Source: Alphaproteobacteria bacterium (GTDB lineage Bacteria > Pseudomonadota > Alphaproteobacteria > Bin95). Taken from it: 64,000 nt of DNA. Where the stretch lies: NCBI GenBank assembly GCA_965205265.1, contig CBDBGH010000003.1:4192001-4256000 (forward strand), read 5' to 3'. Shown piece after piece: positions 6,881 to 23,433 of the stretch (positions are counted from its first letter, which is position 1; every line of letters begins with the position of its first letter). The notes beneath the pieces are model-generated. The model ran no database searches and was not told where the DNA came from. It was given only the letters and a program-made list of their open reading frames with translations. The position numbers were made by a program, and so were the translations under genes.

Positions 6881-7132
6881 ATGAGAAGTGGCGATGAAAT
6901 GCTTCAGCAGATTGTCGAGAAGTCGGCCCTGGATGCGGATTTCCGGCAACAGCTTCTCGCGGATCCGAAGACTGCCATCAGCCAGGAATTGGGCATCACG
7001 ATTCCCGATTCGATGACCATCAAGGTGCATGAGAGCGATATGCAGACGGTGCATCTCGCGCTGCCGCCGGACCCGAACATTACCGAGGAGCAGCTCGAAG
7101 CCATCTCGGCCGGCCTCTGCTGCTGCTGGTAA
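6881..7132 (+). CDS. Proteusin (NHLP-leader) RiPP precursor, core LCCCW (SrpE-like)
   Basis: AAGGAG RBS; NHLP leader DADFRQQLLADPK..ELG..VHE..HLALPP; cleavage motif ITEEQLEAISAG then LCCCW*. Confidence 0.93.
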   Translation: MRSGDEMLQQIVEKSALDADFRQQLLADPKTAISQELGITIPDSMTIKVHESDMQTVHLALPPDPNITEEQLEAISAGLCCCW

Positions 7133-7158: not shown

Positions 7159-7788
7159 GAAGAGAAAGCTTGAACCTGTCCCTCTGGCCGTCCAGCCGGA
7201 CGGGGCTAGGTTCTTTGCGCCTGTCCGATGCTGTTATCGCGGCGAAGCTGCCCCGGAAAGCACCATGAACACATAGGCTTTGGCCTGTGTGAGCCGGTTT
7301 CCGGATATGACCAGCTTTATGTGGTGAATGCCGCGCAACAGCACATAACGACCCGATTTCGCAAAAAGCGTCGTCGGCCTTGAAACCCACCCGGCAAGCG
7401 CGTCAAGTTTCCCGGGAACGACAATCTCCTCATGGCTCAAGGCTTTCAGGAACGGGTCCCAATCGGTCAGGCCGTCGAGCCAGTAGCGGGAATCTTTCGT
7501 GTATCTCTGCCTGACGATGAGTGTCAGGCCCAGAGTCGGACCGAGACCGTCTTCGCGCACATCGATATTCACGCCGGTCCTGACAATATTCGCGCGTTCC
7601 CTGAAGCGGGAAATCACAGCGCCGACGGCGGAGACCTCGCCCGGCCAGCCCGTGACTTCAAGATAGGAACACAGCTCCTGCTGCGACCTGAAGCCCATGA
7701 CCGCCAGGCGGATCGAACGGGAGCGGGACGGGAATACGCCGAACGAGTCCATGCGCGTGTCTTCCGGCTGCGCCCGGTAGGCCCGTTC

Positions 7789-7931
7789 AACGGCCTTCCG
7801 CTCATTGCCGGTCATCTCCCAGCCAATGCCGGAAAGCAGCGCATCGACCACCATGACGGCTTCATCCGCCTGGCCTGAGCCGCCGGTGATCGGGCGCTCG
7901 CCGGGCCGCAGGAACATCGCCGGAAGCGGGT
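7789..7931. repeat. 143-bp target-site duplication of IS copy 2, left copy
   Basis: aacggccttccg...ggaagcgggt recurs at 9848-9990. Confidence 0.95.
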
Positions 7932-9847
7932 CCTGACTTCGACGGTTGATTCGCATAAGTAGTTGATATTGCCTGGTTCTCATTTCGGCTAGGCACTACA
8001 TCCGGCATTTCTTCGAGCCGTGCTTCGTCGACGGTCAGGCGAGTTGATACGGGGTGATCGTCAGGGGCAGCCCCATGGTTGCGTAAATCTGCTCCGCCGC
8101 CGGTGTCGGCTTCGAGGGGATGACGTAGCGGTTGCCCGATTGCCGACAGCGCAGCAGGGAGCACTGGCGGTGGACGAGGGCGGAGCGGATGACCTCCGGG
8201 GACATCCGCCGCTTCTGGATGGCGACGCGGTACGCAAGGTGTCGAACGCAGGCGAAGGCCAGGAAGGCGATGGCGATGTGAGCGCGGATCCGGTCCGGGT
8301 TCCAGTGCCAGATGGGACGTATCTTCAGGTCGTGTTTGGTGATCCGGAAGCTCTCCTCGACCTGCCAGAGCCCCTGGTAGTGAGCCATCACTTCGGTGAC
8401 GCGCGCGTCGCGCAGATTGGTGATGACGCCGGTGAGCCCGTCCCATCGTGCGGCCTCGGCGATCTTCTCCGGGTTCACCGTGAGCCGTGCGTCGCCCTCG
8501 ACGGCGATGAAGCGCTTCGCCCCGTGATTGGAGAGCAGTTCCCTGGGATTGTCGCTGCGGGCCAGCCTGTCGAGCAGGCGTTCCACCTGATGGCGGCGCT
8601 CGTGCGCGTCCTTGCGTGCGCGCTGGGGGCAGAAGACGACGATCAGGCGACGGCCCTTGTACTCCCACTCGCCGACCCGGCGGTCCTGTGAGCCCTCCAG
8701 CGGGGCATAGGTCCCGGGGTCGAGAACCTGCCCCAGCAGCGCGAGCGGCAGCTTGCGCAGCCGCGCGCCGACGACATACTCGCCGCCGATGGCGTCCATG
8801 GCGTCGAGGTTGTCGGCGCTCAGCATGCCCCGGTCGGCCACGCATACCGTGCGCTCCACCTGGTGGCGGCGCTGCATGTCCTGCAGGACCGGGACCATGC
8901 TGTGTCCCTCGTAGGTGGCGCCGGGGAAGACCTCGTAGCTGATCGGCAGCCCTTCGCGCGTCACCATCAGCGCCAGCAGAACCTGCGAGTCCTTGTGTTT
9001 GCCGTCCTTGCTGAAGCCGTGCTGGCGAAGCTCGTCCTCGGCGGCCGTCTCGAAGTAGAGCGTGGTGCAATCGAAGAAGAGGATCGCGACCGGCTCCGGC
9101 AGCAGCGACCGGCTCGCCTCGCCGACGCGCGTGCGCAGTCGCTCGATCACCGTCGCGTCGAGCTGATCCATCATCCGGTAGACCTTCTCGAGCGGAAGAC
9201 TCACGCCGAAGTCCTCCTCGAGCCGGCGCACGCTGCCCCGCTTGCTGTCGGGGTTGGCTACCCGCGCCATCACCACATGGAACAGCGCGTCATGGGAGGC
9301 CCGGTAGCGCGAGCGCGGCAGCAGCGCGTCGAGGCCCAGCAGCCGGTAGATCTCGCCATAGACCTCGTGGATGCCTGTGATCAGGCGCTGCTCCTCTTCA
9401 AGCTGCTTGAGGTCGACCGGGAGTTCCTCCTTGCCGTCCCCCCGGCGGCCGACACGGATCGCCTGCTCAGCGATCTTCTCGGGCGCAAACAATGCCGGCT
9501 GACGCTCGTCCTCCAGCTTCGCCTTGACGTACTCGCCGAGCTGCCTCAGGCGCTCGAGCTCGTCCTCGTCCATGGCCACGCCGACATGGCGGACGATGCG
9601 CTGTCGGACCTTGCCGCCGTCGCGCACGGCCTCGACGATCTGGACCGAGCGTCGCGGGCTGTTGGGGGAGGTCTTGATGCGCACGAACATGGGGGGAGTG
9701 TAGCGCGTGGCGGAGGCATTGACAGTCTCAAAGATTTACTAGGCACTACAACGCAGCTTGACCGCACCGCAACTGCCAACTCATTGGCTTTACTGAAAAC
9801 TCCAGACGCGAGATCGGTCAGAAGTCAGCCCAACCGTCGAAGTCAGG
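7932..9847 (-). mobile_element. IS1634-family insertion sequence, copy 2 (1916 bp)
   Basis: Same terminal repeats and transposase as copy 1, opposite orientation. Confidence 0.93.
8035..9690 (-). CDS. IS1634-family transposase (551 aa)
   Basis: Translation identical to 2587..4242. Confidence 0.93.
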   Translation of the reverse strand: MFVRIKTSPNSPRRSVQIVEAVRDGGKVRQRIVRHVGVAMDEDELERLRQLGEYVKAKLEDERQPALFAPEKIAEQAIRVGRRGDGKEELPVDLKQLEEEQRLITGIHEVYGEIYRLLGLDALLPRSRYRASHDALFHVVMARVANPDSKRGSVRRLEEDFGVSLPLEKVYRMMDQLDATVIERLRTRVGEASRSLLPEPVAILFFDCTTLYFETAAEDELRQHGFSKDGKHKDSQVLLALMVTREGLPISYEVFPGATYEGHSMVPVLQDMQRRHQVERTVCVADRGMLSADNLDAMDAIGGEYVVGARLRKLPLALLGQVLDPGTYAPLEGSQDRRVGEWEYKGRRLIVVFCPQRARKDAHERRHQVERLLDRLARSDNPRELLSNHGAKRFIAVEGDARLTVNPEKIAEAARWDGLTGVITNLRDARVTEVMAHYQGLWQVEESFRITKHDLKIRPIWHWNPDRIRAHIAIAFLAFACVRHLAYRVAIQKRRMSPEVIRSALVHRQCSLLRCRQSGNRYVIPSKPTPAAEQIYATMGLPLTITPYQLA

Positions 9848-9990
9848 AACGGCCTTCCGCTCATTGCCGGTCATCTCCCAGCCAATGCCGGAAAGCAGCG
9901 CATCGACCACCATGACGGCTTCATCCGCCTGGCCTGAGCCGCCGGTGATCGGGCGCTCGCCGGGCCGCAGGAACATCGCCGGAAGCGGGT
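9848..9990. repeat. 143-bp target-site duplication of IS copy 2, right copy
   Basis: Reads identical to 7789-7931. Confidence 0.95.
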
Positions 9991-10423
9991 CTTCGCCATC
10001 TCCCGCCGGAGCGATGTCGTATTCCAGCATCAGCTTGCGACCGACGATTTCGCGCAAAGGCGAGTTTTCCGCGTCCATCCGCTCGAAAAGCCGCATGACC
10101 GCTCTTGCGGTCCTGTCCGTCCCGTCGGCCTCTGCGCGTTCCCGGAAAAATGTCGCCGGTCCGGTTCCGCTCGCAAGGGAGACGCCGAAATCCGCCTTCG
10201 GCCCCGGTTCATGCAGCGGCAGTTCGAAGCCGAACGGAAGCGCGCCCATCGTGATGGGAAGCTTCCCGGCGCATTCGAGGACGAGCTCCCATTCCGGATT
10301 TCCGATGAGCACCGGCGAAATCCTGCTTCGAAAATGCCCGAGCAGGTCGCCCATCGTGCCGCCCTCTTCGGCGAGGCGCTCCTGGGTAAGCGCGACGGCT
10401 TCGTCGATATCCATCTTGCCCTC

Positions 10424-12778
10424 TCACGCAATGACGGGGGCGGGATTCAGCCCGGCTTCGGCCAGGGGATGCGCGCGGCGGCCCATTATGACAGGCACGT
10501 CATACAGGCGCCCCGGCGCGAACCTTGCCCAGAAATGGCGTAGGCCCGGCACGACGACCCGCGCAACAGGCATGCCGATATCGGGCCGGGTCTGGTCCAG
10601 CACCAGGAATTCCATGCCCCTGGCTTCGACGAGCGCACGGCAATGCTCCACATCTTCGCGCGTGTCCGCCGTTTCGACCGCCGGATACCGCGAAGCCTCG
10701 CGCAGCGGCTCATCCGCCGCCGGCGCCAGCCAGGAACACTCGGCGAGCCGGGCGGTCTTCCACCACCGGAGCGCCAGCGGATCGTCGATCATGGGCCGAC
10801 CGCCGGTCCTCCCCGGACGCGGCAGCCAAGTAAGGCACTGGTTCAATTCGCAAATCGCGCGCAAGGCCGCCACGCACGGGTCGGCATGGGCGCCCGCGCC
10901 GTAAATGATGTCCTCGGTGCGGGCGTCCGGCCTGCGCGAGATCGCGACGAAGGCGGGAATGCCGAGATCCGAGGTGATGTCGAGCATCCACAACTCGCGC
11001 TCATATCCGGCATAGCGGTCCGGGGCGGATGCGAGATACTCATCGTCGAAGCTGGAAAGATCGACCGCCGGCGCCCGCAGGCTGTTGTACCACCAGATGG
11101 CGAAGGCGTCCCGCTCCGCCAGCTCGTAGAAGCCCTGCATGACGGCTTCTTCCAGGGTGTTGCCGGCAGCGCAGCCGTTGGAGTCGGCGATCAGATCCGC
11201 AGGGCCACGCTGTTCGGCCGGCATGCTGTAGAGCATCGATGTCGGCAGATAGCGATGGCGCTGCTGCGTCAGCGACCACACCGGGGTCCAGTCGATTTCG
11301 GCATCGGGGTCGAGACGCGGCGGCACAACATTGTAGGGGTGTCCTTCCGCATTGATGCTGTCCGCGTTATCCAGCTGTCTTTCGCTGAACAGTTGCACTG
11401 CGTTCGGATGGACCGCCTCGTCCTCCACGGCGAAGTCGATGAAGCGCCCGCGGCGGCGGATCTCGTCGCCGGCGCGGGCGCCCGAATAGCGCTCGATCGC
11501 TTCGCAGAGGGCGCTGACCTCGGATTGCTCCCTTGTGCTGCCCTTGCCGGCGCTCTTGCTGCGCAGGCTTCGCCGCAGCGAACTCAGGCTCCGGCTTTTC
11601 ATGCCGTGATTGCCGCCGGCCCAATAGACATGCAGCCAGGGGTCGGCCTCGTCGGTCGTGCGCCTGAGCCAGGTCACGACCCCGCTCACCGGGCTGACAA
11701 GGTGGCGGTATTTCGCCAGGGTCGCTTCCGGCGCCACGCTGCGCGCCCCGCCGCTGTTGCGATGGGTCTTGGGACTTGCCTGCAGGGACAGCGGAACCGC
11801 CGGCCGGTCCGGGCGGTGCAACGCCTCTTCGCCGCAGGCAGGGCATTGCGGCCGGCGCATGACCCGGTGCTGCGAGCTTGCGAATGTGCCGGTATTCATC
11901 GCGACCGCGTGGTCGTGAATCGGGGCCGCCTCGTCCAGAACCAGCCATTTGACGATTTCGGCCGCGATCAGCCCGTACAGCCCTTCCAGAACCGCGGGCT
12001 CGGCCGCGAACGGCTTGAACGCGGCCTCTTCGCCGGCAAAATTGCGCAGGAAGCCGTGGACTTCCTCATGGCCGCGCAGGCGGTGGGCCAGACAGGCCCA
12101 GCAGGGTCCCTGCCGGTCCGCGCGGAAGACGGGGCCGAACAGCGCCTCCATGCCCCGAGGCCGCAGCAATGTCCACGCCGCTCCCGCCTCGAGCTGGCGC
12201 CGATTCACGTCTTCGAGGCGCGCGTCGAGATAGTCGTCGCAGACGATGACGGTGAGTCCGGGCTCGCCGGTCCCGACCCCGGCGCCGGCCTCTTCCAGAC
12301 GCCGGGTGAGCCGGCCGTCATCCCCTTCCACCGCGATGCGCGAGGCCGCCAGCCGTTGCTCGACCCAGCGGGGCGAAGCGCCGAGCGACGACCACCAGGC
12401 CGCCCGGTGCCGGTCCATGCCATGATCGCCGGAGACGACATAACCCCTGGCGGAAAGCGAACCGACCGCCGCGAGAACATCGGCGGCGGTGTGGACGCCC
12501 TCAAGGGCGGCGGCGATTTCGTCCTGCGGGCGCCGGCCGTCGAGCAGCGGCAGCAGATCGCAATAGAGCCTGCCATGCAGCAGGGTATTGAACGACTCGG
12601 AAACCAGAAGCGCCTGCTGTTCGCCGATTTCGTGGAATTGCAGGTGGGGGGCAAGCGCGGGAAGCCTGACGGCACCCCGGTCCGCAGAAGTCGTTCCGGT
12701 CAATATCCCCCGCCGGGAATTCCTGTCTGTCTGCACTGGCATCCAGGATTTCCGTTCCGGACCGGCCGGCGCCTTCAT
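10424..12778 (-). CDS. Fused leader-binding/E1-like-YcaO cyclodehydratase (TOMM type, SrpC-like)
   Basis: GPCWACL and CPAC in the E1-like part; YcaO motifs SAGKG, SALCEAIERYS, SNGCAAGNTLEEA..GFYELAERDA, PVARVVVPGL and C-terminal NPAPVIA. Start taken at the ATGA overlap with the upstream gene. Confidence 0.92.
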   Translation of the reverse strand: MKAPAGPERKSWMPVQTDRNSRRGILTGTTSADRGAVRLPALAPHLQFHEIGEQQALLVSESFNTLLHGRLYCDLLPLLDGRRPQDEIAAALEGVHTAADVLAAVGSLSARGYVVSGDHGMDRHRAAWWSSLGASPRWVEQRLAASRIAVEGDDGRLTRRLEEAGAGVGTGEPGLTVIVCDDYLDARLEDVNRRQLEAGAAWTLLRPRGMEALFGPVFRADRQGPCWACLAHRLRGHEEVHGFLRNFAGEEAAFKPFAAEPAVLEGLYGLIAAEIVKWLVLDEAAPIHDHAVAMNTGTFASSQHRVMRRPQCPACGEEALHRPDRPAVPLSLQASPKTHRNSGGARSVAPEATLAKYRHLVSPVSGVVTWLRRTTDEADPWLHVYWAGGNHGMKSRSLSSLRRSLRSKSAGKGSTREQSEVSALCEAIERYSGARAGDEIRRRGRFIDFAVEDEAVHPNAVQLFSERQLDNADSINAEGHPYNVVPPRLDPDAEIDWTPVWSLTQQRHRYLPTSMLYSMPAEQRGPADLIADSNGCAAGNTLEEAVMQGFYELAERDAFAIWWYNSLRAPAVDLSSFDDEYLASAPDRYAGYERELWMLDITSDLGIPAFVAISRRPDARTEDIIYGAGAHADPCVAALRAICELNQCLTWLPRPGRTGGRPMIDDPLALRWWKTARLAECSWLAPAADEPLREASRYPAVETADTREDVEHCRALVEARGMEFLVLDQTRPDIGMPVARVVVPGLRHFWARFAPGRLYDVPVIMGRRAHPLAEAGLNPAPVIA

Positions 12779-15171
12779 GCACGCGAGTGGAGCGCATCGA
12801 TCGCGGCGGCAGCGCCGGATGCGGTTTCGGCCACAGCCGCGGCCAGCGCCTCGAAATCCTCGTGCCCGCAAGCGCCGGCGACAAGCGACCTGACCTTCTG
12901 CCCCGCCGCCGCTGGGTCAAATCCGTCCTCGCCGACAAGGCATATGACGCCCTGCAAATCCCGCCACAGGGCCGCAGCCTGCGCCAGCGACTCGGCGCCG
13001 GCAGCGTCGAACACCGCTGCCGCACTCGGGGCCGGATCGTCGAGCCCGCTCCCCGCCTGCGTCAACTGCAGCACCCGCGCCGCCCTCTCGACATCGTCCA
13101 GCCCACCGCGCATCCGGGCATATGCGGTGAGGCCCGTTTCGTCGGGACGACCCGCCGGCTCGCGCAATCCGGCGATCAGAGATTCGTTCGAGCCGCATTC
13201 GGCCAGCAGCCGGCGCTGCGCCTCGGCGAAGCGGCCGCCGATTTCGGCGTCGCCGCACTCGAAGATGCAGCGCGCTCTGGTGAGGATGGGAATTTCGCCG
13301 GCGGCAGGACTCCCGTAGCGCGCGGCCAGCTCGGAAAGCGGCAGCGCATGAAGGGAGTCGAAACCGGGCGGCACCGGGGAGAACAACAGGCTGTCCTTCG
13401 CCAGCTCGGTCACGGCCTTCCGGAAACCCCGGCACAGACGTTCGTTTTCACCGAACTTCCAGCTGTCATTGACGAACAGCATGTCGATTGCGATGCCGGG
13501 ATAAACGTCCCGGCTGGCGAGGTCGCCCAGGAAAACAGCAGCGACCCCGCCCGCGCGCAGCGGTCCGGACCGGTCGACAAAATCCGCGACCACGGCTGCC
13601 AGCACGGTTGAAACCGACGCTTCGGCCAGATTGGACAGCGCCGTCTTCGCCTCGCCCGGAGACAGGTTCCCGCGCACGACATGCATGCCGATCTGGAACG
13701 CCTTGTCGTTCGACCAGTTTCGCACGATCTCCGCCGATTCCCCTGCATCGGCCGCCGGCAATTCGGCGATCAGCTCCTTCATTTCCCGAACGCCCATTTC
13801 GCGCGTCCAGTAGAGCCTCGTGAGCCCGCGCCGCGCGATCGACTCGTATTGCCGGTCGGGCCCGAATCCTTTCGGCAGGTCGAGATCGGTGAACTCCCGA
13901 TCCTGCAGGTTGTCGAGAAGCTCGGAGTGGCGTTCGATCCATGCGGCAAGCCGCGGGGCGGCGCCGAAGATTTCGGCTATCGCATCGAAGGCGTCCGGCC
14001 GCGCCGCAGAAACCGCGCTGTCATAGGCGCTCCAGTCGTCGATGTCGGGATAGAAATGCCGGCGCCATTCATCCACCAGAGGATCCATCTTCGCGAACCA
14101 GCGCTTCGGCCGCAGCACGAGGTTCATCATGTCGCCATAGGTTCCCGGCAATTCCGGCGATTCATCCGACCCGCGAACCTGCAACAGCGGATAGTGCCGC
14201 GCGGCCATGGCGTGATGGTCCGCGTGGCGCTGCATGTTGAAGAACATCCAGTTGCTGAACTTCCAGTCGGCGCTCCAGGAATGGCGCGGCATCACCTTTT
14301 CCCAACGTCCGTTCGGCAGGCGAACCCGGCGCAGGCCGTAATGCTGAAAGTAGTTGCTGATCTTCATGGAAAAGACGCAGCACAGACCGAGAAAGGCAAA
14401 GACCGGCACCGCCCAGATCCCACCCATCCAGAACACCACTGCATACCAGAACGCCACTGTCAGACCGTAACGCCAGAACGGATTGCTGTAGTGCCACATG
14501 GAAAGCTGCCGCCGGGCCAGCCTTTCGCCCACGACTTTCCAGGAATTGGTGAGATTGCTTACAATTTCCTTAGGGAAATACTTCCAGAAACTTTCGCCCT
14601 TCGGCGCGGACCCTGCATCATGCGGCGTTCCCACCATGGCATGATGTATATAGACGTGCTCTGTCGCATATTGCGGATAGGACGCCGAGGAAAGCAGGAA
14701 TTCTCCAAGCCGGCGCTCCCAGACAGCGCGCCGGTGGACCAGCTCGTGTCCGACCACGAATACCGCTTGCGCTTCCATGGTCAAAATGATCGCCAGCAGC
14801 ACGCTTTCCCAGACTGACAACTGATTCGCGACAAGAATCTGCCACATGCCGAAAATGAGAACCGGCGGCCATAGAATCGCCCAGGTCCAGACAGGAAGAT
14901 TATGCCATAACAGGCGGCGTTCCGACGTTCTTGCCGGATCCATACTGCGTCCGTCGCGCCCCAGAACCCGATCCAGCGGTCCCGCGACGCTCATGAAGAG
15001 AAATGCGGGCAACAACCACCAGCCGCCATGGATCGCGGCCAAAACAATCAACGGAAAAATACCCAGCGGCAGATAGTGCGGAAGGGCGTTCAGGATCGAC
15101 GGTTCGATCCGCCACGCCAAGCCAGCTCCGTTGGGGCCCGGGCTGACATTTGCGGAGGCATCTTGCGGCAT
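12775..15171 (-). CDS. AlkB-like membrane diiron oxygenase/desaturase fused to a degenerate GlnE-like nucleotidyltransferase domain
   Basis: His boxes GHELVHR, EHVYIHH, NYFQHYGL, MQRHADHHA. C-terminal half has GlnE-like ALSNLAEA, AVFLGDLASRDVYPGIAIDMLFV, LTRARC, RGGLDDVE..LQL. Confidence 0.8.
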   Translation of the reverse strand: MPQDASANVSPGPNGAGLAWRIEPSILNALPHYLPLGIFPLIVLAAIHGGWWLLPAFLFMSVAGPLDRVLGRDGRSMDPARTSERRLLWHNLPVWTWAILWPPVLIFGMWQILVANQLSVWESVLLAIILTMEAQAVFVVGHELVHRRAVWERRLGEFLLSSASYPQYATEHVYIHHAMVGTPHDAGSAPKGESFWKYFPKEIVSNLTNSWKVVGERLARRQLSMWHYSNPFWRYGLTVAFWYAVVFWMGGIWAVPVFAFLGLCCVFSMKISNYFQHYGLRRVRLPNGRWEKVMPRHSWSADWKFSNWMFFNMQRHADHHAMAARHYPLLQVRGSDESPELPGTYGDMMNLVLRPKRWFAKMDPLVDEWRRHFYPDIDDWSAYDSAVSAARPDAFDAIAEIFGAAPRLAAWIERHSELLDNLQDREFTDLDLPKGFGPDRQYESIARRGLTRLYWTREMGVREMKELIAELPAADAGESAEIVRNWSNDKAFQIGMHVVRGNLSPGEAKTALSNLAEASVSTVLAAVVADFVDRSGPLRAGGVAAVFLGDLASRDVYPGIAIDMLFVNDSWKFGENERLCRGFRKAVTELAKDSLLFSPVPPGFDSLHALPLSELAARYGSPAAGEIPILTRARCIFECGDAEIGGRFAEAQRRLLAECGSNESLIAGLREPAGRPDETGLTAYARMRGGLDDVERAARVLQLTQAGSGLDDPAPSAAAVFDAAGAESLAQAAALWRDLQGVICLVGEDGFDPAAAGQKVRSLVAGACGHEDFEALAAAVAETASGAAAAIDALHSRA

Positions 15172-15247: not shown

Positions 15248-16579
15248 TCAGGTCTTCAGGACTTTGAGGAGGCAGTCCAGAGCCTCGATGCAGAACGCGG
15301 ACGTCACGGCTTCGGAGCCATGCCCTATCTGCCCTACGGTCCCCCACTTCAGCGATTGGTCTCCGAACGCCAGAAGCTCCGGCCAGCTACCGTCGCCTCG
15401 CTGCGAATTTACGAATCTTTTCAGTTGGCGTTTTCCGTCAATGCTTTCAAGCTTTCCAATATTGTAAAGTGCCGATACTGCCTGCGCCGCCTGAAGAACA
15501 TTGACAAACTCTTCCCTTTCGTCGCGCAATCCCAGAATTCGTTCAGCAAGAATCGGGCTTAGTTTATCGAGGGCCGGCCGCGTGCGAGCCACCGCACGCG
15601 CGGTTGCATAGTAGATCGACACCTCGTCGGGATACCATTTGGATGAATCCCGAGCCTGGCCTTCGGTAATCAATGTTTCCAGCCATCGTTGAGCGTCCCT
15701 TGTTTCAGGGCGGTCACCGAGATAGGCGATGACATTCGCATTGACGACGGGATCGGCTTCGAGGCGGAAACGCGACACAACGTCAGGTTCGTCCCCGGCC
15801 AGAATCCAGGTCATGAAACGACCGTGATCGTCACGGTTCTCCAATATTGCAGGCAAGTTTCTTTTCAGAAGAATCCAGGGATGATCTTCGATAACAAGCG
15901 AACAGAGTGTCGTGCTGTCGAGGTCCTGAGGCAGATGGCGGTAGTAGCGCCACAATCCAGGATATTCGATGGTGTCGCCGATATAGGCTCTGGCAGCATT
16001 GCACAGGACCCTGGCCCGCTCATCGCCGCAATTTTGCAGGGCAAGCGCGCAGAAGGCCGAAACGAAGGGCGGTCTTTCGAAATGCCGCGGAATATCCGGG
16101 TCGGCCATGTTGAACCGGATGCAGTGCCAGGCTCCGTTTTCGTCGATAGCGGACTCCAGGAAAGCGAGACCGCGGCGGATGCTGTCCCTGCCCGCAGCGG
16201 CCGGCGCCTCGGGGCCGGCGGCGCTCGTTCCGGCCCGCTCTCCGTCGGGCAGGGGAGGACGACGCGGCGGCGCGGGGTCGTGGAGCGTCCTGCGGAGAAA
16301 GGCAAGCGAGGTCGCCCCGGTTCTCGCTTCCTCCCGTTCCGCCGCGGTGAATTTATCGCGCGGCGGCAGAACGATATGCGTCGCCGCGTAGGTTTCCTCA
16401 TGCACGTGAATTTCATGGCCTTCGGCCAATGTCACGCCGAGTTCCTCTTCGATGGTCTTTCCGGGGTCGGCGAGAAGGCGCTCCCGAAGACCGTCTTCGC
16501 CGCCGGCCCGCGACATGAGGTCTTCCAATGCGTCAACGGGTTTCTTCACCGATGCATTCCATTTTCCCGAACCCTGCAA
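15248..16579 (-). CDS. NHLP-leader-fused class II terpene cyclase / prenyltransferase-squalene oxidase repeat protein
   Basis: Residues 1-88 are NHLP-leader-like; the rest has PQDLDSTT (DxDD-like), DPVVNANVIAYLG, QRGDGSWP (QW motif) and GSEAVTSAFCIEAL. Start codon uncertain. Confidence 0.75.
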   Translation of the reverse strand: MQGSGKWNASVKKPVDALEDLMSRAGGEDGLRERLLADPGKTIEEELGVTLAEGHEIHVHEETYAATHIVLPPRDKFTAAEREEARTGATSLAFLRRTLHDPAPPRRPPLPDGERAGTSAAGPEAPAAAGRDSIRRGLAFLESAIDENGAWHCIRFNMADPDIPRHFERPPFVSAFCALALQNCGDERARVLCNAARAYIGDTIEYPGLWRYYRHLPQDLDSTTLCSLVIEDHPWILLKRNLPAILENRDDHGRFMTWILAGDEPDVVSRFRLEADPVVNANVIAYLGDRPETRDAQRWLETLITEGQARDSSKWYPDEVSIYYATARAVARTRPALDKLSPILAERILGLRDEREEFVNVLQAAQAVSALYNIGKLESIDGKRQLKRFVNSQRGDGSWPELLAFGDQSLKWGTVGQIGHGSEAVTSAFCIEALDCLLKVLKT

Positions 16580-16589
16580 TCTTTCCCGG

Positions 16590-19532
16590 TCAGGCGATCT
16601 GTCGCCTGACCAGCTCCCTGAATACCCCGTCGACCTCCATGAGTTCGCTGAAGGAACCGCTTTGTACGACCTTCCCGGCCTGCAACACGTAAATGCGGTC
16701 GGCCTGTTCCAGCGTCGACAGGCGGTGCGCGATGACGATCCGGGTGGAAGTGAGCGCGGTGAGATTCCGCATCACTTCCGCCTGGTTTTCGTTGTCCAGC
16801 CAGTTGGTCGCCTCGTCGAACAGCATGATCCGCGGGCTGCCGATAACCGAACGGGCGATCGTGACGCGCTGGCTTTCACCGCCCGACAGGACGGTCCCGC
16901 TGGTGCCGACCATGGTCATCATGCCCATGGGCATGCCCCTGATCTGATCCTCCACTTCGGCGACCCGGGCCGCTGACCATACTTCGTCGCTCGTCACGTC
17001 CTCGTGGTGGCTGACCAGATTGTCCCAAAGGTCCTGGGGATGAAGGCCAACCGATTGCGGCACGGCGCCGATTTTCCGGCGCACCTGCTTCAGGTTCAGG
17101 TGCCTGAGGTCGCGTCCGTCGTAATACACCGCTCCTGCGGTTGGTCGGTCGATTCCAAGGGCAAGCCGGAACAGGGTGCTTTTGCCCGACCCGGATTCGC
17201 CGGCAATGGCGATGAAGTCGCCGGTACGGGCATGGATCGTGACGTCGTCGAGAACCAGCGGGCCGTCCGGGTCGTAGCGGAAGGAAATGCGGTCGAACAG
17301 AACGTCGCCGCCCAGATGTTCGACCGGTTCCCCCTTCACTTCGGTATCGGGAACTGCGGCCAGCAGGGGGCGTATCCGGGCGAACGCCGGGAGTATGGCG
17401 GCAATGGCGCCGAAAGACTCGCCGAGCCGCCCGACGGCGGACTGGAAGGCGATGAAGACGATATAAACGACGAGAAAATCTCCGACCGGAAGGGCCCGGT
17501 CGCCCACCGTGGCCGCTGCGAGGAGCAATACCCCGCCGGCAAGAAAAGGAAGCGCGGCGGCGAAGGCCCGCGAATGCGCCTCAAGCGCATCCAGCTCGAT
17601 CTCCGCGCGTTTCTGCGCGCGATAATCCCGCGCCCAGATAGCAAAAGCCGATCCTTCCGCGTTTTCCACACGCAGCTTGGCGATACCGCCCACGATCTGG
17701 AACAGCCGGCCGGATACGCGGCGCGCTGCGTCGATCATCCGCCCGTAGGGCGAAATCTGGCGCAACCCAAGGACGACCGCGACCAGCAGCGAAACCAGGC
17801 TGAAGACGAGGGCGACGATGCCGAGGGCGGCATCGTAGAAGAAGATGACGGCAAAGACCGGAAGCAGAAAAACGATCGACAACAGGCTGTCGGCCACCAC
17901 TCCCTGCAGGCCGTCCCGGAGATTCTGGAACGTCATTCCCGACATCGCCAGATCGCCGGCCGGATGGCGGTGCAGCCGGCTTGGCGGGAGGCGCATGAGC
18001 CGGTCCCAGAAAGCAGCTTCGACCCTCGACGCCGAGCGTCCTTCAAGCCGCATCATTGCCGAGCTTTGAAACAGATGCAGCAACGCGCCGAGCATGCCGA
18101 ACCCCGCGACCGCCAGGGCCACGGCATAAAGCGTTTCGGCGTTTCCGCCCGCCGCTATGTGATTCGCAACGAAACCGAGCGCAATTGCCGGCAGCAGCTT
18201 GATCAGGCCGCCCGGAAGCCCGGCAGCGACCAGCCGCGCCAGATCCCCGGCCGATCCATGCAGGGCGATTTTCAGCAGGTCCGCCGGTTTCACGTTCCCA
18301 GACGGCAACGGCCGGTAGAACATCCAGGCTTCCTCGGCCAGCGCGCCGGCGCGTTCGGCCGTCATCCGGGTGCTGCGCTTGCTGACCGGGTCCACTTCCT
18401 TGTAGCGCCCGAACATTCCCGGCAGCAGCGCTACGGGCCGGCCGTCCTCGGCGCGGAAGCCCAGCATCGCATTGCTGTCGCCCCGCCACCAGTCGCCCTC
18501 GTCCCTGAACCGCACGCGCCGGGCGCGCACGCCTGACGCATGGAGAACGTCAACCAGCCCGACCGGCGGGGCCGAAGGTCCCGAGCGCGCAGGAATCCTG
18601 AAATCGATGCCTTCATGGCGGCCGACGAGTTGCAGGGCATCGGCCAAAGCGGTGTCCTCGACATCGGCATCCCGGTCGATCGGCAGGTCATAGATATTGA
18701 AAAGCCGCTGCCGCGCAGCCTTTTCGGCCGTGTAGCGGCTGGCGGTCCGTGCGCGTTCGAGGTTCGCATCGTCGACCACGGCCAGCCGGCGGTTGACCCG
18801 TTCCAGGGCGAAGGCGACCGCATGAAAAGAGGCGAGCGCGCGGAGCAACTTGCCCTGCTGCGCCAGGGTTTCCGTCGATTCGCTCGAAAGCGTCGCTTCG
18901 TCGAACAAATTGAGCCAGCTTGTCCGTGTCAGCGGCATCACGGCTTCGTGCGGACCGCCCGCCTCGGCAAGTTCCGCGTGGTCCACAATACCCATGAACA
19001 GGCCGGCGCCACGCGGGGGCTCGGATACCCATACGACGCCGCGCCGGACCGACAGCGTGCAGGGAGCCAGGGTTCGTCTCGTACCGGGCTCGGCCAGCGC
19101 CGTCGGACGCGGCAGGCGGCTTGCGAAACGTGAAAGCGAGTCGGTCACGGCAGTCAGCCAGGTATCGGTCTGTTCCGCCAGGTCTGCCGGACGGACCTCG
19201 GACAGCAGGGATGCCGGCAGGCGCCTCAGAACGGTGCCCGGCGATCCTTTGGCAATCAGGCTGAGAGTCGTGTCTTGCTCGCCGGCTCCTTCGTCCGCCG
19301 CCACGCCCGGCAGCAGCCAGCCCGCTTCCCGGCGCAGCAGATGCTGCGGGGCCGCCTGGTCCACCCCGTCCCGCAATTCGACCAGGAACAGGTTGACGGC
19401 GCCCCGATCGATGAACCAGACGCTTTCCGGATCGTCGAGTTTCACCGGCGCGTTGCCGGCGCAGGGCACGGATGTGCCGGAGCGGGCCGCGAGTTCGGCA
19501 ATCGATGCGTATTCCGGGCCTGGGTCCTGCAT
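16590..19532 (-). CDS. NHLP bacteriocin export ABC transporter, permease/ATPase subunit
   Basis: 980 aa; SGVRARRV..WWRGD..PVALLP; Walker A GESGSGKST, LSGGESQR, FDEAT, IAHRLST. Confidence 0.9.
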   Translation of the reverse strand: MQDPGPEYASIAELAARSGTSVPCAGNAPVKLDDPESVWFIDRGAVNLFLVELRDGVDQAAPQHLLRREAGWLLPGVAADEGAGEQDTTLSLIAKGSPGTVLRRLPASLLSEVRPADLAEQTDTWLTAVTDSLSRFASRLPRPTALAEPGTRRTLAPCTLSVRRGVVWVSEPPRGAGLFMGIVDHAELAEAGGPHEAVMPLTRTSWLNLFDEATLSSESTETLAQQGKLLRALASFHAVAFALERVNRRLAVVDDANLERARTASRYTAEKAARQRLFNIYDLPIDRDADVEDTALADALQLVGRHEGIDFRIPARSGPSAPPVGLVDVLHASGVRARRVRFRDEGDWWRGDSNAMLGFRAEDGRPVALLPGMFGRYKEVDPVSKRSTRMTAERAGALAEEAWMFYRPLPSGNVKPADLLKIALHGSAGDLARLVAAGLPGGLIKLLPAIALGFVANHIAAGGNAETLYAVALAVAGFGMLGALLHLFQSSAMMRLEGRSASRVEAAFWDRLMRLPPSRLHRHPAGDLAMSGMTFQNLRDGLQGVVADSLLSIVFLLPVFAVIFFYDAALGIVALVFSLVSLLVAVVLGLRQISPYGRMIDAARRVSGRLFQIVGGIAKLRVENAEGSAFAIWARDYRAQKRAEIELDALEAHSRAFAAALPFLAGGVLLLAAATVGDRALPVGDFLVVYIVFIAFQSAVGRLGESFGAIAAILPAFARIRPLLAAVPDTEVKGEPVEHLGGDVLFDRISFRYDPDGPLVLDDVTIHARTGDFIAIAGESGSGKSTLFRLALGIDRPTAGAVYYDGRDLRHLNLKQVRRKIGAVPQSVGLHPQDLWDNLVSHHEDVTSDEVWSAARVAEVEDQIRGMPMGMMTMVGTSGTVLSGGESQRVTIARSVIGSPRIMLFDEATNWLDNENQAEVMRNLTALTSTRIVIAHRLSTLEQADRIYVLQAGKVVQSGSFSELMEVDGVFRELVRRQIA

Positions 19533-21742
19533 CAGCCTGACCTGACCAGGTTGAAATAGGCGCCGCCCTCGTCCGCGATCAGCTCGTCATGCGTGCCGCG
19601 CTGTATTTCGGCGCCTTTGTCGAGCACGATGATTTCATCGCAGTCGCGCACGGTGCTCAGCCTATGCGCCACGATCAGGCAGGTGACGCCGCGGCGCCGC
19701 AGGGCATCGTCCACATATTCCTCCGTCGCGGCATCGAGAGCGCTGGTCGCCTCGTCCAGAATGAGGACCGTCGGATTGCCCACCAGCGCGCGGGCGATTT
19801 CCAGCCGCTGCCGCTGGCCGCCGCTGAAATTCGCGCCGCCCTCCTCCACGAGGGTCGAATATCCCTGCGGCCGCAGCAGGATTTCATCGTGGATACAGGC
19901 GTCCCGCGTCGCGGCGAAGACGGCTTCGTCCGGAATGGCCGGGTGCCACAAGGTGATGTTGTCGCGCAGCGACGCGGAAAACAGGACGACTTCCTGGTCC
20001 ACCATCGAAATCGACTGTCGCAGCACTTCCTCGGGAATCTCATCCCGAAAATGGCCGTCGAACAGGATCTCGCTCGACCAGGGCTGATAGATGCCGGCAA
20101 CCAGGCGCGCCACGGTCGACTTGCCGGAACCGCTGGGACCGACCACGGCAACCCGCTGCCCCGGCTCGATCGCGAGGTTGAAGTCCTTTATCAGCGGCGG
20201 TCGGCTCTTGTTGAAGCCGAAGGTGACGCCTTTAAGTTCGAGCCGGCCGGTCAGCTGGAGCCGGCCGTTGAATGTGGCGATTGAGTCCGACTGCGGATTT
20301 CGGCGGCTGAAAACCGGGTCTTCGGCGGCTTTCGAAATGTCCTCGAGCCGCTGCAGGTCGGTTTCGAGCGCCTGGCGCTTGTCGGTGAATTCCAGAAAGC
20401 GGCCGACAGGCGCCAGGAACATCTCCGCCAGGATATAGAAGCCGGCCAGCGTCGCCAGGGTCATGTCTCCGGACAGGACCAGGCTTCCCCCGACTCCCAG
20501 GATCGCCGCACTGCGAAGCGCGGCGACCAGGACCGGAAGCGCGGTGTTGACGGAGCCCAACTCGGAATAGAGCTGGCGCGCGCGCAATTCCCGCGCCTGC
20601 TGGCCGCTCCAGCGCGAAAAGAAGCGGTCGTCCGCGCCCGTCATGCGCAGGTTGTCCGCATGGCTCAACATCTGCATGCCGAGCCCGATCAGCAATCCCT
20701 GCTCGCGCCTCATCGCCTGGCTTCGAACCGCCCGGGCGGCATTGAAAAAACGGGCCAGCAGCCCGTGCAGAACGGCCAGCAGCAACACAATCAGCGCGAG
20801 CCGGAAGTCATAGGCCAGCATGGCGACGAGCAGCACCGCGCTCATTGCCATTTCGATAATGAGCACGAGAAACCGGTCTGTCAGATTCTTCGCGATTCTG
20901 TCGATGGACGAGACGCGATCGGTCAAATCGCCCACCAGCCGGTGTTCGAAGAACTCAACCGGCAGCCGCAGCAGCCGCGACACGCCCCGATTGTAGCCGA
21001 CCACCGCAATCCGGACCGCGAGCCGCTTCAGGAACCGGTGCTTGAGCAGGGACAGGACATATACCAGCACGCCGCCACCGAGCAGGGCCGCCACCAGCCC
21101 GCCCCAGGGCCCGTGGTTCTTCAGAACATCGTCCACAAAGAAGCTGAGAGACGCGGGCACGACAAGCGCCAGCAATGTCAACATGAACCCGCAGGCAACT
21201 ACCCAGGCAAGCACGCCCCCGGATCCGGCGAGCATGGCGCGCAATTGCCGGAAAAGGCTGGGCCGCTCGCCTCCCGGGCTGAAATCGGCGCCGCGCTCGA
21301 AGCGCAGCGCAATGCCGCTGTAGCCCTTGTTGAACTCCTCGGCGGAAAGCCGGCGTCGTCCCATGGCCGGGTCATTGAGGTAGAAATTGGCGCTGTCGGA
21401 CCCTTCGAGGACAACGAAATGGCTGAATTGCCAAAACAGAATCAACGGCAATTGCAGCTTTTGCAGTTGCGCGGCGCGCAGGCTGAGCCCGCTGCATTCG
21501 AGACCGTAATGCCGGGCGGCGCGCAGGATGCTGGCAGCGCTGCTGCCGTCCCGGCTCACCTCGCATTTTTCCCGTAATTCCGTCAGCGGCACCCAGCGCC
21601 CGAAATAGGCCAATATGCTGCCGAGGCAGGCGGCACCGCATTCCGATGCGTGCATCTGCAACAGAATGGGCGTGGTTATCCTTTGTTGAAGGACATCCGG
21701 TGCGGCCTTGTCGCCAGCCCCTTTTGAGGCGCGCGACAGCAT
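19532..21742 (-). CDS. NHLP export peptidase-containing ABC transporter (C39/permease/ATPase)
   Basis: LQMHASECGAACL, HFVV and NDPA (C39 catalytic residues intact); GPSGSGKST, FSGGQRQRLEIARAL, LDEATSALD. Confidence 0.93.
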   Translation of the reverse strand: MLSRASKGAGDKAAPDVLQQRITTPILLQMHASECGAACLGSILAYFGRWVPLTELREKCEVSRDGSSAASILRAARHYGLECSGLSLRAAQLQKLQLPLILFWQFSHFVVLEGSDSANFYLNDPAMGRRRLSAEEFNKGYSGIALRFERGADFSPGGERPSLFRQLRAMLAGSGGVLAWVVACGFMLTLLALVVPASLSFFVDDVLKNHGPWGGLVAALLGGGVLVYVLSLLKHRFLKRLAVRIAVVGYNRGVSRLLRLPVEFFEHRLVGDLTDRVSSIDRIAKNLTDRFLVLIIEMAMSAVLLVAMLAYDFRLALIVLLLAVLHGLLARFFNAARAVRSQAMRREQGLLIGLGMQMLSHADNLRMTGADDRFFSRWSGQQARELRARQLYSELGSVNTALPVLVAALRSAAILGVGGSLVLSGDMTLATLAGFYILAEMFLAPVGRFLEFTDKRQALETDLQRLEDISKAAEDPVFSRRNPQSDSIATFNGRLQLTGRLELKGVTFGFNKSRPPLIKDFNLAIEPGQRVAVVGPSGSGKSTVARLVAGIYQPWSSEILFDGHFRDEIPEEVLRQSISMVDQEVVLFSASLRDNITLWHPAIPDEAVFAATRDACIHDEILLRPQGYSTLVEEGGANFSGGQRQRLEIARALVGNPTVLILDEATSALDAATEEYVDDALRRRGVTCLIVAHRLSTVRDCDEIIVLDKGAEIQRGTHDELIADEGGAYFNLVRSG

Positions 21743-21743
21743 C

Positions 21744-22295
21744 CTATGACTGCCCCGCTCTCATAAGAGAGACCAGGGATTGGCTGCCGAGTTCAATAAC
21801 GATCCGGCAGTTCCTGCCTGCAAGCGAAGCAGGATCGAGGCTTTCGTCGAGCGCGATATCCACGCGGTACACAGACACCGGCGCCCTGGCTGCCAACGCC
21901 GCCAGTCCTTCCGACAAGGGCACAGCGGCAATTGTTGCGATCCGGCCCTCTACTATGCCCGATTCTCCATCCGCCAGGGCCAACTCCAACGCCGCCGGCA
22001 TCCCGGCCTCGATACGCGGCGCAGCATCGCTTCCGACCCAGACGAGAGCCTGCACCGTCCGGCGGCTCCCGGGCAAGGTTTCGCCGGCCTCGACCAGCAG
22101 ACCGTCCAACGCAAGGCTACGGGCTACATTGCCGAACAGCAGCCACGCCGCGAGGAGAAACAACAGCAAGGCAATAAGGGCGACAAGCAGGCGCTCGCGC
22201 GGCGTGGAAATCGTGAGCAGCCGGTCGAGTTGTTCACGCTCTTCCTTCGCTTCGGCAACCGTGTCGTGAAATGAGCTAAATGGATTATTGAACAC
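21744..22295 (-). CDS. Short NHLP secretion (HlyD-like) accessory protein
   Basis: EQLDRLLTISTPRERL plus a transmembrane helix typical of NHLP secretion proteins; GAGGAGG RBS before GTG; only about 183 aa. Confidence 0.7.
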   Translation of the reverse strand: MFNNPFSSFHDTVAEAKEEREQLDRLLTISTPRERLLVALIALLLFLLAAWLLFGNVARSLALDGLLVEAGETLPGSRRTVQALVWVGSDAAPRIEAGMPAALELALADGESGIVEGRIATIAAVPLSEGLAALAARAPVSVYRVDIALDESLDPASLAGRNCRIVIELGSQSLVSLMRAGQS

Positions 22296-22560
22296 AACCG
22301 CGCGTAGCCTCCTCGACATAGATCGGGCAGGGCAAGGAAAAAACTTCTCCAGTTTTAGCGAAGAATGGGAAATCATATGCAATCGGGACCGCGAAAGGTC
22401 AAGTCCAGGGGGCCGCAACAGACTCTGTTCCGCGCGCGCCGGCCAGAACCCCGGGCGCCCGTCCCGGAGGCACGCGCCATAGTCGAAATCCAGGGAAAGT
22501 CCGGAACTTCACCTTCTCCGGGGAACGGAGGTAGAGTGCGGGACACCGAATACGGGACCC

Positions 22561-23433
22561 GTGCCGATGCTCGCTGACGGCGAAACCGCAGAAAAACGGT
22601 TTGTTGGCCAAGGCCGGAGGAAAAGGTTTCCGGGCGCCCGGCATGTCTTGTTCGCAGTCCTGACTGCGGGGCTGGCATATGCCTGTCTGCCGGTTGCGCA
22701 TGCCCAGGGAGAAACGCCGGAGGAGAAGGGCCTCAGGATTGCGCGTGAGGCAAGCGCCCGCAATGACGGCTTCGGCGACTTTACCGCCGGGATGACGATG
22801 GTGCTCCGCGACCGGCACGGCCGGGAAAGCACCCGCCAGATGCGCTTCAAGGTGCTGGAAGTGCCGGGGGACGGCGACAGGAGCCTGTTCGTGTTCGACC
22901 AGCCGCGGGACGTGCAGGGAACCGCGCTCCTGACGCACGCCCATATCAACACAAGGGACGACCAGTGGCTTTACCTACCGGCGCTCAAGCGGGTGAAGCG
23001 CATCAACGCTTCGCGGCGTTCGGGGTCGTTCATGGGAAGCGAGTTCTCATACGAGGACATGAGCTCCTCCGAGGTGGAGGAATACACCCACAAATATCTT
23101 CGCGACGAGCCTTGCGGCGACCTCGTCTGCACGGTGACCGAGCAGGTGCCGCTGGACAAGGACTCCGGATACAGCCGCAAGATCGTCTGGCAGGACGCGG
23201 ACGAGCTTCGGACCTGGAAGATGGAACTGTACGACCGGAAGAACTCGCACCTGAAGACGCTCACCCTCGCTGACTACCGTCAGTATCTGGACCGTTACTG
23301 GCGGGCGGGAGAACAGACGATGGTGAATCATCTGACCGGCGCGAGCACGGTGCTGAAATGGAGCGAATTCCGGTTCGGCAACAATCTCAGCGAGAGCGAA
23401 TTCACCCGGCCGGCGCTTCGGCGCGTGCGCTGA
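22561..23433 (+). CDS. Outer membrane lipoprotein-sorting protein (LolA-like)
   Basis: FDQPRDVQGTALL, DDQWLYLPALKRVKRI, GSFMGSEFSYED, YSRKIVW. Confidence 0.88.
   Translation: MPMLADGETAEKRFVGQGRRKRFPGARHVLFAVLTAGLAYACLPVAHAQGETPEEKGLRIAREASARNDGFGDFTAGMTMVLRDRHGRESTRQMRFKVLEVPGDGDRSLFVFDQPRDVQGTALLTHAHINTRDDQWLYLPALKRVKRINASRRSGSFMGSEFSYEDMSSSEVEEYTHKYLRDEPCGDLVCTVTEQVPLDKDSGYSRKIVWQDADELRTWKMELYDRKNSHLKTLTLADYRQYLDRYWRAGEQTMVNHLTGASTVLKWSEFRFGNNLSESEFTRPALRRVR

Follow-up and report, generated by a model that had tools for sequence, protein, structure and literature searches.

The window analysed here is a stretch of 64,000 nucleotides from the genome of an Alphaproteobacteria bacterium (assembly GCA_965205265.1), and it contains a minus-strand gene that joins a domain resembling the NHLP leader of a peptide made by ribosomes and modified after translation (RiPP) to one class II terpene cyclase barrel through a Pro-rich linker. 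This architecture is conserved in relatives of the gene, which were collected by scanning one genome per species; 136 relatives were found and 80 loci with 64-85 % identity were kept. Positions 15248-16579 form a single open reading frame (ORF) on the minus strand when counted from TTG 16579, as the original prediction had it without naming the strand, and the upstream ATP-binding cassette (ABC) gene ends before it, at 16590. The start at TTG 16579 was replaced by GTG 16549, which probably gives the natural protein of 433 amino acids (aa), because matches in 72 of the 80 loci start at residue 1-2 of the 433-aa form and most database relatives have the same length; TTG 16579 and ATG 16516 are the in-frame alternatives. 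Residues of the fusion protein are numbered from GTG 16549 throughout. The Pro-rich linker and the DLDS and QRGDGSW motifs, which had been read from the letters before, are all present in the translation.

The N-terminal part of the fusion protein resembles the leader of the precursor peptide encoded in the same gene cluster. Between LLADP and the Gly that precedes the core, the two align without gaps with 21 of 54 residues identical, exactly the number counted previously; none of 20000 shuffles reached 21, and the shuffle maximum was 12. In this alignment FTAAEREEARTG of the enzyme stands opposite ITEEQLEAISAG of the precursor leader, as had been proposed. The BLASTP match of precursor and enzyme covers 73 residues without gaps (23/73 identities, 32 %; E 2e-13), and a protein of 340 residues follows the NHLP part at the point where the precursor has its short core. 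The N-terminus does score on hidden Markov models of the family, matching TIGR03793 (leader_NHLP) at E 1.1e-7 and 31.6 bits and PF02979 (NHase_alpha) at E 0.003. When searched alone, the N-terminal domain matches alpha chains of nitrile hydratase, with E 1.5e-4 at best, and 8tb1, a solved NHLP leader chimera (E 0.01). Among divergent representatives of the fusion family, three full-length proteins (57-66 % identical to the window protein) score 27.9-48.5 bits on TIGR03793 and two fragments 49.7 and 52.1 bits; one of six family representatives (P0133, 52.1 bits) passes the curated cut-off of 50.9, and the other five lie at 27.9-49.7 bits. The AlphaFold2 (AF2) model places helices at residues 4-17, 21-27 and 29-37 and strands at 48-51 and 57-60, followed by LPP, with a predicted local distance difference test (pLDDT) of 46-77. 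The domain shares the signature DFR..LLA.P...VHE...LPP and, as predicted at this low pLDDT, the fold elements with NHLP/proteusin leaders (TIGR03793; SrpE, MprE7) and differs from them in lacking L(X)4L, Gly-Gly/Ala-Gly and a core, in running into a 320-residue enzyme and in scoring below the curated cut-off. These sequence comparisons identify the N-terminal ~65 residues as paralogous to the structured nucleus of the NHLP leader that the cluster itself encodes.

The features of a leader that serve cleavage are altered in the fusion. In the family alignment 74 of 80 rows are usable, the three-residue stubs at L033, L052, L057, L070, L076 and L079 having been excluded from per-column counts. 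Opposite the end of the precursor leader, position -12 is F in 39 rows, L in 24, Y in 10 and I in 1, position -7 is R in 73/74, -4 is A in 74/74, -2 is T in 58/74 and -1 is G in 74/74. The precursors have I/L/M at -12, L/M at -7 and I/V at -4, then AG, and related precursor leaders end in (I/L/M)(T/S)EEQ(L/M)EA(I/V)SAG. The first helix of residues 66-92 (..EREEARTG) faces the L(X)4L/Gly-Gly helix of the precursor. The second helix, SLxFLRKTL/M followed by HDPAPP, is nearly invariant, contains an F(X)4L/M spacing and may be a shifted replacement for the lost L(X)4L motif. In described NHLP leaders, the nucleus contacts the RiPP recognition element (RRE) of YcaO via helix alpha1 and accommodates hydrophobic side chains that come from LanM and from a prenyltransferase, and the disordered part with L(X)4L binds SrpI, RRE strands and C39 domains (PMC10858898, PMC12455567, PMC12715784); the folded nucleus is reported to be a protein-protein interaction surface (PMC12455567, PMC12715784). 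Cleavage and export of the fusion protein are unlikely because the element used by peptidase and strand-binding sites is gone. Because the L(X)4L and double-Gly residues are lost and the folded nucleus and a conserved helix are kept, the NHLP domain is read as a putative docking module, which we infer to be neither a cleavable leader nor an export signal. Docking on YcaO, or pairing with the precursor leader, is possible. A three-chain complex prediction (YcaO residues 40-430, an intact prenyltransferase homologue and fusion residues 1-112) gave a score of 0.00 and a mark of 0.32 and is uninformative on binding, its calibration not being for three chains.

The earlier assignment of the C-terminal part as a class II cyclase-like barrel was upheld by a profile search and by a fold search. 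Pfam matches to SQHop_cyclase_C lie below threshold. A profile of 61 family members (A1) searched against the PDB matched drimenol synthase in its class II domain (E 3.2e-28), squalene-hopene cyclase (~1e-23), AstC (E 2e-19), the single-domain 'squalene-hopene cyclases' 8pak and 8paj, the prenylcyclase 6ij1 and, over about 50 residues, MstE (E 2.7e-6). The AF2 model of the fusion protein has a mean pLDDT of 84.5, with values above 90 through most of residues 113-433. In Foldseek, the class II domain of AsDMS takes ranks 1-10 for this model (E 1.6e-12; TM 0.58 when normalised to the whole query); MstE, 6ij1 and 8pak/8paj, all of them beta-monodomain cyclases, come next (~2e-9), and ranks 1-34 are all class II cyclases.

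The catalytic motif reads DLDDTA in the wider cyclase family, DLDT in drimenol synthase and DLDS in the fusion, where D209, L210, D211 and S212 are kept in 74/74 rows, as are W200, Y202, R262, K304, W305 and Y306. A single QW-type copy, QxxDGSW (Q383..G387.W389), which is presumably the QW motif of class II cyclases, keeps its Q, G and W in the same 74/74 rows. D211 aligns with the Asp of AsDMS that is Asn in the D333N entry 9m7d; the general acid of AsDMS is D323 in the numbering of PMC12232559 and is the same Asp as in that entry. According to the same source, AsDMS and AstC are active with T as the last residue of the DxDD motif (PMC12232559). Further residues of AsDMS were mapped to the fusion by hand from the profile alignment: W306, F308 and Y417 correspond to W200, Y202 and Y306, and the phosphate-binding R368/R370, R415 and Y416 fall at or near R260/R262, K304 and W305. 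On model and profile evidence, a single-barrel class II terpene cyclase makes up the C-terminal 320 residues and retains the predicted general-acid Asp of DxD(S)T.

AsDMS and AstC are the best profile and fold matches; like the fusion, they have a single beta domain without a gamma domain, carry a hydroxyl residue in place of the last DxDD Asp and keep W, Y and basic residues around the pocket. They differ in having a haloacid dehalogenase (HAD) phosphatase partner, in using free farnesyl diphosphate (FPP) and in being only 17-18 % identical to the fusion over the fold alignment. MstE, an enzyme of merosterolic acid biosynthesis, is likewise a single beta barrel and, according to entry titles, cyclises a prenyl chain already present on an aromatic carboxylic acid; its sequence match to the fusion is weak, it has no extra domain and it lies outside a RiPP cluster.

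The fusion is widespread and conserved over its full length. A word-indexed protein search found 1056 proteins at E <= 1e-3 among 8000 scored, and the best 120 of these are all 422-466 aa long and 69-100 % identical, many with precomputed PF02979 and/or PF13243 matches. An exhaustive search of 50 % representatives gave 953 proteins at E <= 1e-3, of which 428 reach <= 1e-10 and 51 reach <= 1e-30. The full-length fusions among the representatives are 57-66 % identical to the window protein, and numerous stand-alone proteins of 300-340 aa align with residues ~120-425 only, at 28-44 % identity. In other relatives the barrel stands next to a P450, alone or together with a glycosyltransferase, or next to DUF2332, a sulfotransferase or a weak Trp_DMAT region. 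The fusion is full length in 72/80 loci, so that a lost stop codon, one way in which the architecture might have been an artefact, is ruled out by the orthologues. These loci come from metagenome-assembled genomes of about nine higher taxa, given in record titles as Alpha-, Gamma- and Deltaproteobacteria, Nitrospirales, Nitrospinota, Gemmatimonadota, Acidobacteria (Bryobacterales, Vicinamibacteria), Latescibacterota and Binatia; identities of 64-85 % across phyla mean that the cluster has spread horizontally as a whole. The mean pairwise identity amounts to 0.66 in the NHLP nucleus, 0.71 in residues 66-92, 0.46 in the Pro-rich linker and 0.74 in the barrel, and because the nucleus is nearly as conserved as the barrel, the N-terminal domain is under selection.

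The stand-alone cyclase homologue P0134, compared with metagenome contigs, matched one weak locus only (L081, 26 % identity), and a stand-alone profile (A2) did not find the family in 400 other genomes of the window's phylum, with two weak matches inside much longer frames. In run X20, which is recorded as a metatranscriptome, 187 contigs matched the 64-kb stretch at a likeness of at least 80 %. One of them (record 8; 526 nt, 47 differences, no gaps) spans 16155-16679, from the NHLP domain through the linker into the first part of the barrel, and derives from a relative. It is at most a hint of transcription, as DNA carry-over in the library is possible.

The features of the fusion gene and of its neighbours are collected in Table 1.

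Table 1 Features of the fusion gene and of the surrounding cluster in the window
Feature	Coordinates	Strand	Remarks
NHLP-domain/class II terpene cyclase fusion coding sequence	15248..16549	minus	433 aa from probable start GTG 16549; stop 15248-15250
NHLP-type structured nucleus, residues 1-65	16355..16549	minus	three predicted helices and beta hairpin ending in LPP
Two short conserved helices, residues 66-92	16274..16354	minus	family alignment and secondary structure of the model
Pro-rich linker, residues 93-112	16214..16273	minus	most variable part, mean pairwise identity 0.46
Predicted beta-monodomain class II terpene cyclase (alpha/alpha barrel), residues 113-433	15251..16213	minus	PDB profile, Foldseek, AF2
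Codon of D211, middle Asp of DLD(S)T, candidate general acid	15917..15919	minus	alignment with AsDMS
NHLP precursor gene	6881..7132	plus	83 aa, 252 bp; leader ...ITEEQLEAISAG, core LCCCW; TIGR03793 71.6 bits
C-terminal piece of putative ABBA-fold prenyltransferase gene	7234..7983	minus	same ~372-aa gene in relatives
IS1634-family insertion	7933..9847		transposase ORF 8035-9690 (minus), NF033559 E 1.1e-101; inverted repeat I1
N-terminal piece of putative ABBA-fold prenyltransferase gene	9818..10414	minus	one ~372-aa gene in relatives
Winged helix-turn-helix/E1-like leader-binding/YcaO cyclodehydratase (SrpC type)	10424..12871	minus	PF02624 E 1.4e-94, TIGR03882, TIGR03604
Fatty-acid-desaturase-like and GlnE-like nucleotidyltransferase fusion	12775..15171	minus	798 aa; PF00487 E 7.7e-25
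NHLP-type export ABC subunit 2 (ABC2)	16590..19532	minus	TIGR03797 E 2e-202, residues 294-979; ~290-aa N-terminal extension
C39 peptidase/ABC exporter	19532..21742	minus	TIGR03796 E 5.7e-252, PF03412
Short HlyD-like protein	21744..22418	minus	224 aa; weak TIGR03794 match, E 5.6e-4

Judged from its sequence, the window holds the 'srp' sponge proteusin cluster, a published type, an assignment made because of the LCCCW core, the 252-bp precursor gene and the spread over many sponge-symbiont phyla. The same core, a highly transcribed 252-bp precursor gene and many sponge-symbiont phyla are described for the type (10.1101/2023.06.09.544420, PMC9426513), and the window also shares its YcaO. The proteins of the window were compared with the 80 loci by tblastn, with contig ends limiting the counts. 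The precursor is present in 80/80 loci (median identity 87 %) and full length in 58; 58 of 59 precursor matches at an identity of at least 60 % end in LCCCW, and the C-terminal Trp is the only aromatic residue of the precursor. YcaO was found in 67/80 loci, ABC2 in 71/80, C39-ABC in 69/80, the short HlyD-like protein in 51/80, the MMPL transporter in 21/80 and, at varying positions, the desaturase-like/nucleotidyltransferase protein in 61/80. Among the loci listed, the usual order is HlyD-like, C39-ABC, ABC2, fusion, (desaturase-like), YcaO, prenyltransferase gene and, on the opposite strand, precursor. In the srp literature consulted, the genes beside YcaO and the transporters are named 'genes of unknown function', and SrpC is reported to make three thiazolines while being poorly active in Escherichia coli and not purifiable (PMC10286304). 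A flavin-dependent brominase, SrpI, is implied in only some srp clusters (10.1101/2023.06.09.544420). The window differs from clusters with SrpI, as no halogenase family matched the large ORFs scanned around the cluster, between about 4.3 and 27 kb. The original prediction was silent on the cluster type, on the neighbouring prenyltransferase and on the fused prenyltransferase-cyclase maturases that had already been described.

The gene between YcaO and the precursor is one gene in relatives and is split in the window by an IS1634-family element. A perfect direct repeat of 144 nt, the target duplication, borders the element on both sides (7789-7932 and 9848-9991), and because this duplication is perfect the insertion is recent. 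The srp pathway is probably incomplete or disabled in this genome through the split gene. The N-terminal piece (9818-10414) is matched in 68/80 loci and the C-terminal piece (7234-7983) in 67/80. The intact homologue at L001 (15736-16857), folded with 32 relatives, gave a model with pLDDT 87.8, a predicted template modelling score (pTM) of 0.88 and five alpha-beta-beta-alpha repeats. In a Foldseek search with this model, every match listed down to rank 47 is an ABBA aromatic prenyltransferase (E 7e-7 to 2e-4), among them EpzP, NphB/Orf2, CloQ, bacterial dimethylallyl-Trp synthases, CymD, AmbP1/3 and PagF. The Atlas leads are Trp_DMAT (0.88) and PTase_Orf2 (0.84), with none for the N-terminal piece. 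The neighbouring gene is assigned, on its modelled fold alone, as a putative ABBA aromatic prenyltransferase, and its presence would give the cyclase a chemical job. In L045, L059, L062, L066, L067, L075 and others the prenyltransferase gene directly follows the fusion gene and the locus holds a more divergent YcaO (63-69 % identity) at another place, which suggests that the cyclase-prenyltransferase pair moves as a unit.

Homologues of the two enzymes are also joined in one protein. In P0208 (667 aa), residues 7-342 align with the profile of the srp prenyltransferase (hhalign probability 75.8 %, E 2.3e-5, 299 columns; BLASTP E 0.004), including a shared C-terminal HIK...AKAYV, and residues 353-650 match the cyclase, with the motif DVDD. 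By these alignments P0208 is a fusion of homologues of both srp enzymes.

Peptide maturases of comparable composition have been described. NctPC and ChrPC are reported to consist of a prenyltransferase fused to an MstE-like cyclase, to put C10-C20 chains on a Trp of a RiPP and then to cyclise them (PMC13290415). Common to these and the srp clusters are an MstE-like monodomain class II cyclase and a peptide prenyltransferase in RiPP clusters, with proteusins included in the published set, and a Trp acceptor, since the srp clusters likewise offer a Trp-containing core (LCCCW) with YcaO and exporters adjacent. The primary study of the fused maturases, by Hubrich et al. 2024 in Chem, is said to mention a cyanobacterial proteusin in its abstract. 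In contrast to NctPC and ChrPC, the srp prenyltransferase and cyclase are separate genes in 67/80 loci, the srp cyclase carries an NHLP leader-like domain in place of a prenyltransferase domain, its motif is DxDS rather than DxDD, and the srp enzymes are known here from sequence. By analogy, the proposed chemistry would be of a known kind, namely the formation of terpene-RiPP hybrids by prenyltransferase-cyclase maturases; new are the split activities, the cyclase with a leader-like domain and the host, the very widespread srp family. A literature search found no paper linking srp clusters to a cyclase or a prenyltransferase, although primary papers and supplements may already note it.

From these comparisons a pathway can be proposed. 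YcaO would turn the three Cys of the LCCCW core into thiazolines, and the ABBA prenyltransferase would attach an isoprenoid chain to the peptide, most probably at the indole of the C-terminal Trp. D211 of the cyclase would then protonate the terminal double bond and the chain would fold into rings, as reported for the NctPC type. At the pocket's mouth, the invariant R262 and K304 might bind the peptide through its free C-terminal carboxylate, a role likened to that of R337 of MstE, which from entry titles is presumed to hold the benzoate; they could equally hold a diphosphate. The cyclase has no leader-binding domain or RRE, and its NHLP domain would keep it in the maturation complex through YcaO, the prenyltransferase or the precursor. 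This scheme, comprising thiazoline formation by YcaO, prenylation of Trp, cyclisation started by D211 and an NHLP domain that acts as a docking module, is somewhat more likely than not, and the analysis suggests that the product of the srp cluster bears a cyclised terpene. A more specific arrangement is put forward tentatively and may well not hold: the NHLP domain would be a natural 'leader mimic' that plugs the cyclase into a dimeric, leader-recognising maturase, either YcaO or the prenyltransferase, at one leader-binding site with the precursor in the other, so that one assembly would carry out heterocyclisation, prenylation and terpene cyclisation on the five-residue core.

Several observations weigh against the proposed pathway. 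The prenyltransferase gene is broken in the window, and tblastn showed no prenyltransferase in 12-13 of the 80 loci, for which contig ends may account. Its sequence has no match in Pfam or NCBIfam and its profile none in the PDB, and the fold matches are at modest TM-scores of 0.4-0.5. Of four long C-terminal-cyclase proteins compared by hhalign, one has an N-terminal domain like the srp prenyltransferase, and P0197, P0218 and P0233 gave no match. The literature searched yielded no enzyme with the Ser variant of the DxDD motif that had been tested. The basic R262 and K304 would fit a diphosphate substrate as well as a peptide carboxylate, and the nearest solved relatives are reported to use free FPP, not peptides (PMC12232559). 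The score of the window protein on TIGR03793, 31.6 bits, lies below the curated cut-off, and the N-terminal domain of the AF2 model is of low confidence (block means 46-77).

It is unlikely, on the material at hand, that the cyclase acts on a free isoprenyl diphosphate, turning, for example, FPP into a drimenyl-type diphosphate as AsDMS and SsDMS do, with the NHLP domain only keeping the enzyme near the RiPP machinery and the ABBA prenyltransferase moving the cyclised unit to the peptide, or with the terpenoid as a separate product. The nearest solved relatives are drimenyl diphosphate-forming class II domains, the hand mapping puts the invariant R262/K304 at or near the phosphate-binding R368/R370 and R415 of AsDMS, and an MMPL transporter with LolA-like and DUF1302-like proteins stands beside some clusters, all of which would speak for this reading. 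The order of events in the described fused maturases, which transfer the prenyl group first and cyclise second (PMC13290415), speaks for the peptide-bound chain instead, as do the MstE-type relatives, whose entry titles indicate cyclisation of chains already on an aromatic acid; moreover, a leader-like domain makes little sense if the enzyme never meets a peptide. The barrel may also be imagined as a non-catalytic binding or immunity protein for a lipophilic product, with the NHLP domain as an evolutionary relic, and the replacement of the third Asp of DxDD by Ser, together with a cyclase activity that is predicted, would allow this. It is scarcely credible, as the middle Asp, like the aromatic and basic residues around it, is the same in 74/74 rows from many phyla, and conservation of the NHLP nucleus at 0.66, against 0.74 for the barrel, is not that of a relic.

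Two further explanations concern the NHLP domain itself. A true leader, with the C39 peptidase-ABC exporter cleaving after ..ARTG and secreting the protein, is highly improbable, even though the fusion gene lies directly downstream of two ABC genes, Gly occupies the precursor's last leader position in 74/74 rows and position -12 is hydrophobic. An exporter of this kind would hardly carry a folded alpha/alpha barrel of 320 residues whose isoprenoid substrates are cytoplasmic, and the L(X)4L pair, which is the described C39-binding element (PMC12715784), is changed, with R in 73/74 rows at -7, A in 74/74 at -4 and T in 58/74 at -2 where the precursors have L/M, I/V and A. Of the original prediction, the architecture stands and is conserved, and these residues argue against the proposed passage through the C39 exporter and cleavage after TG. 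Alternatively the domain might act in cis, either as a lid on its own barrel that stands in for a gamma domain or as a built-in activating leader; engineered leader-enzyme fusions work in the latter way, the built-in leader keeping the enzyme active. The linker region adjoining the barrel is conserved, and the solvent-exposed active sites of monodomain class II cyclases are reported to need capping (PMC12232559). Such a role is nevertheless quite improbable, as the model places the N-terminal domain with low confidence and in no firm position, and stand-alone homologues of ~300-340 aa exist without any such domain.

The srp clusters are reported to rank with the most widespread biosynthetic clusters of sponge microbiomes and with those transcribed most highly (10.1101/2023.06.09.544420, PMC10286304). 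Two conserved srp genes, which have no curated family match beyond the sub-threshold NHLP match, can now be read as a putative prenyltransferase and a putative class II terpene cyclase, and this reading gives a testable class of product structures and a list of partners missing from reconstitution. If the leader mimic is true, it would be a new way to recruit RiPP tailoring enzymes, and the ubiquitous srp products of sponges would be thiazoline peptides with a polycyclic isoprenoid attached. An enzyme equipped with a copy of its substrate's leader domain would add a new principle by which RiPP enzymes find their substrates, and would be a ready-made tool to tether foreign enzymes to NHLP pathways.

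Other genes in and around the cluster were also inspected. The protein at 12775-15171, with its membrane fatty-acid-desaturase-like domain, may carry out an oxidative or adenylylating tailoring step. No family model covers the ~290-residue N-terminal extension of ABC2 (16590-19532), which by eye resembles a barrel of the cyclic-nucleotide-binding/cupin type and could be another site that recognises NHLP domains. The HlyD-like protein has 224 aa against 421 positions of TIGR03794, of which only the N-terminal 50 are matched, and an ORF of 181 aa that lies upstream of its gene and overlaps it (22399-22944, minus strand) is conserved in only 14/80 loci. The flanks of the cluster hold, on the plus strand, an MMPL/resistance-nodulation-division (RND)-type transporter (4355-6694), a LolA-like protein (22561-23433; PF17131, E 5e-59) and a DUF1302-like protein (23358-24647); these recur beside the cluster in 21, 14 and 8 of the 80 loci, respectively, and may be an export route for a lipophilic product. 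Elsewhere in the same genome, two ORFs (G000:C3:257390-257785, 233 aa, and C3:886306-886671, 256 aa) each contain two sub-threshold NHLP-like stretches and may encode nitrile hydratase alpha subunits or tandem NHLP proteins. Loci L003 and L004 lie on one 4.1-Mb contig, which carries two copies of the fusion-to-precursor part at two places.

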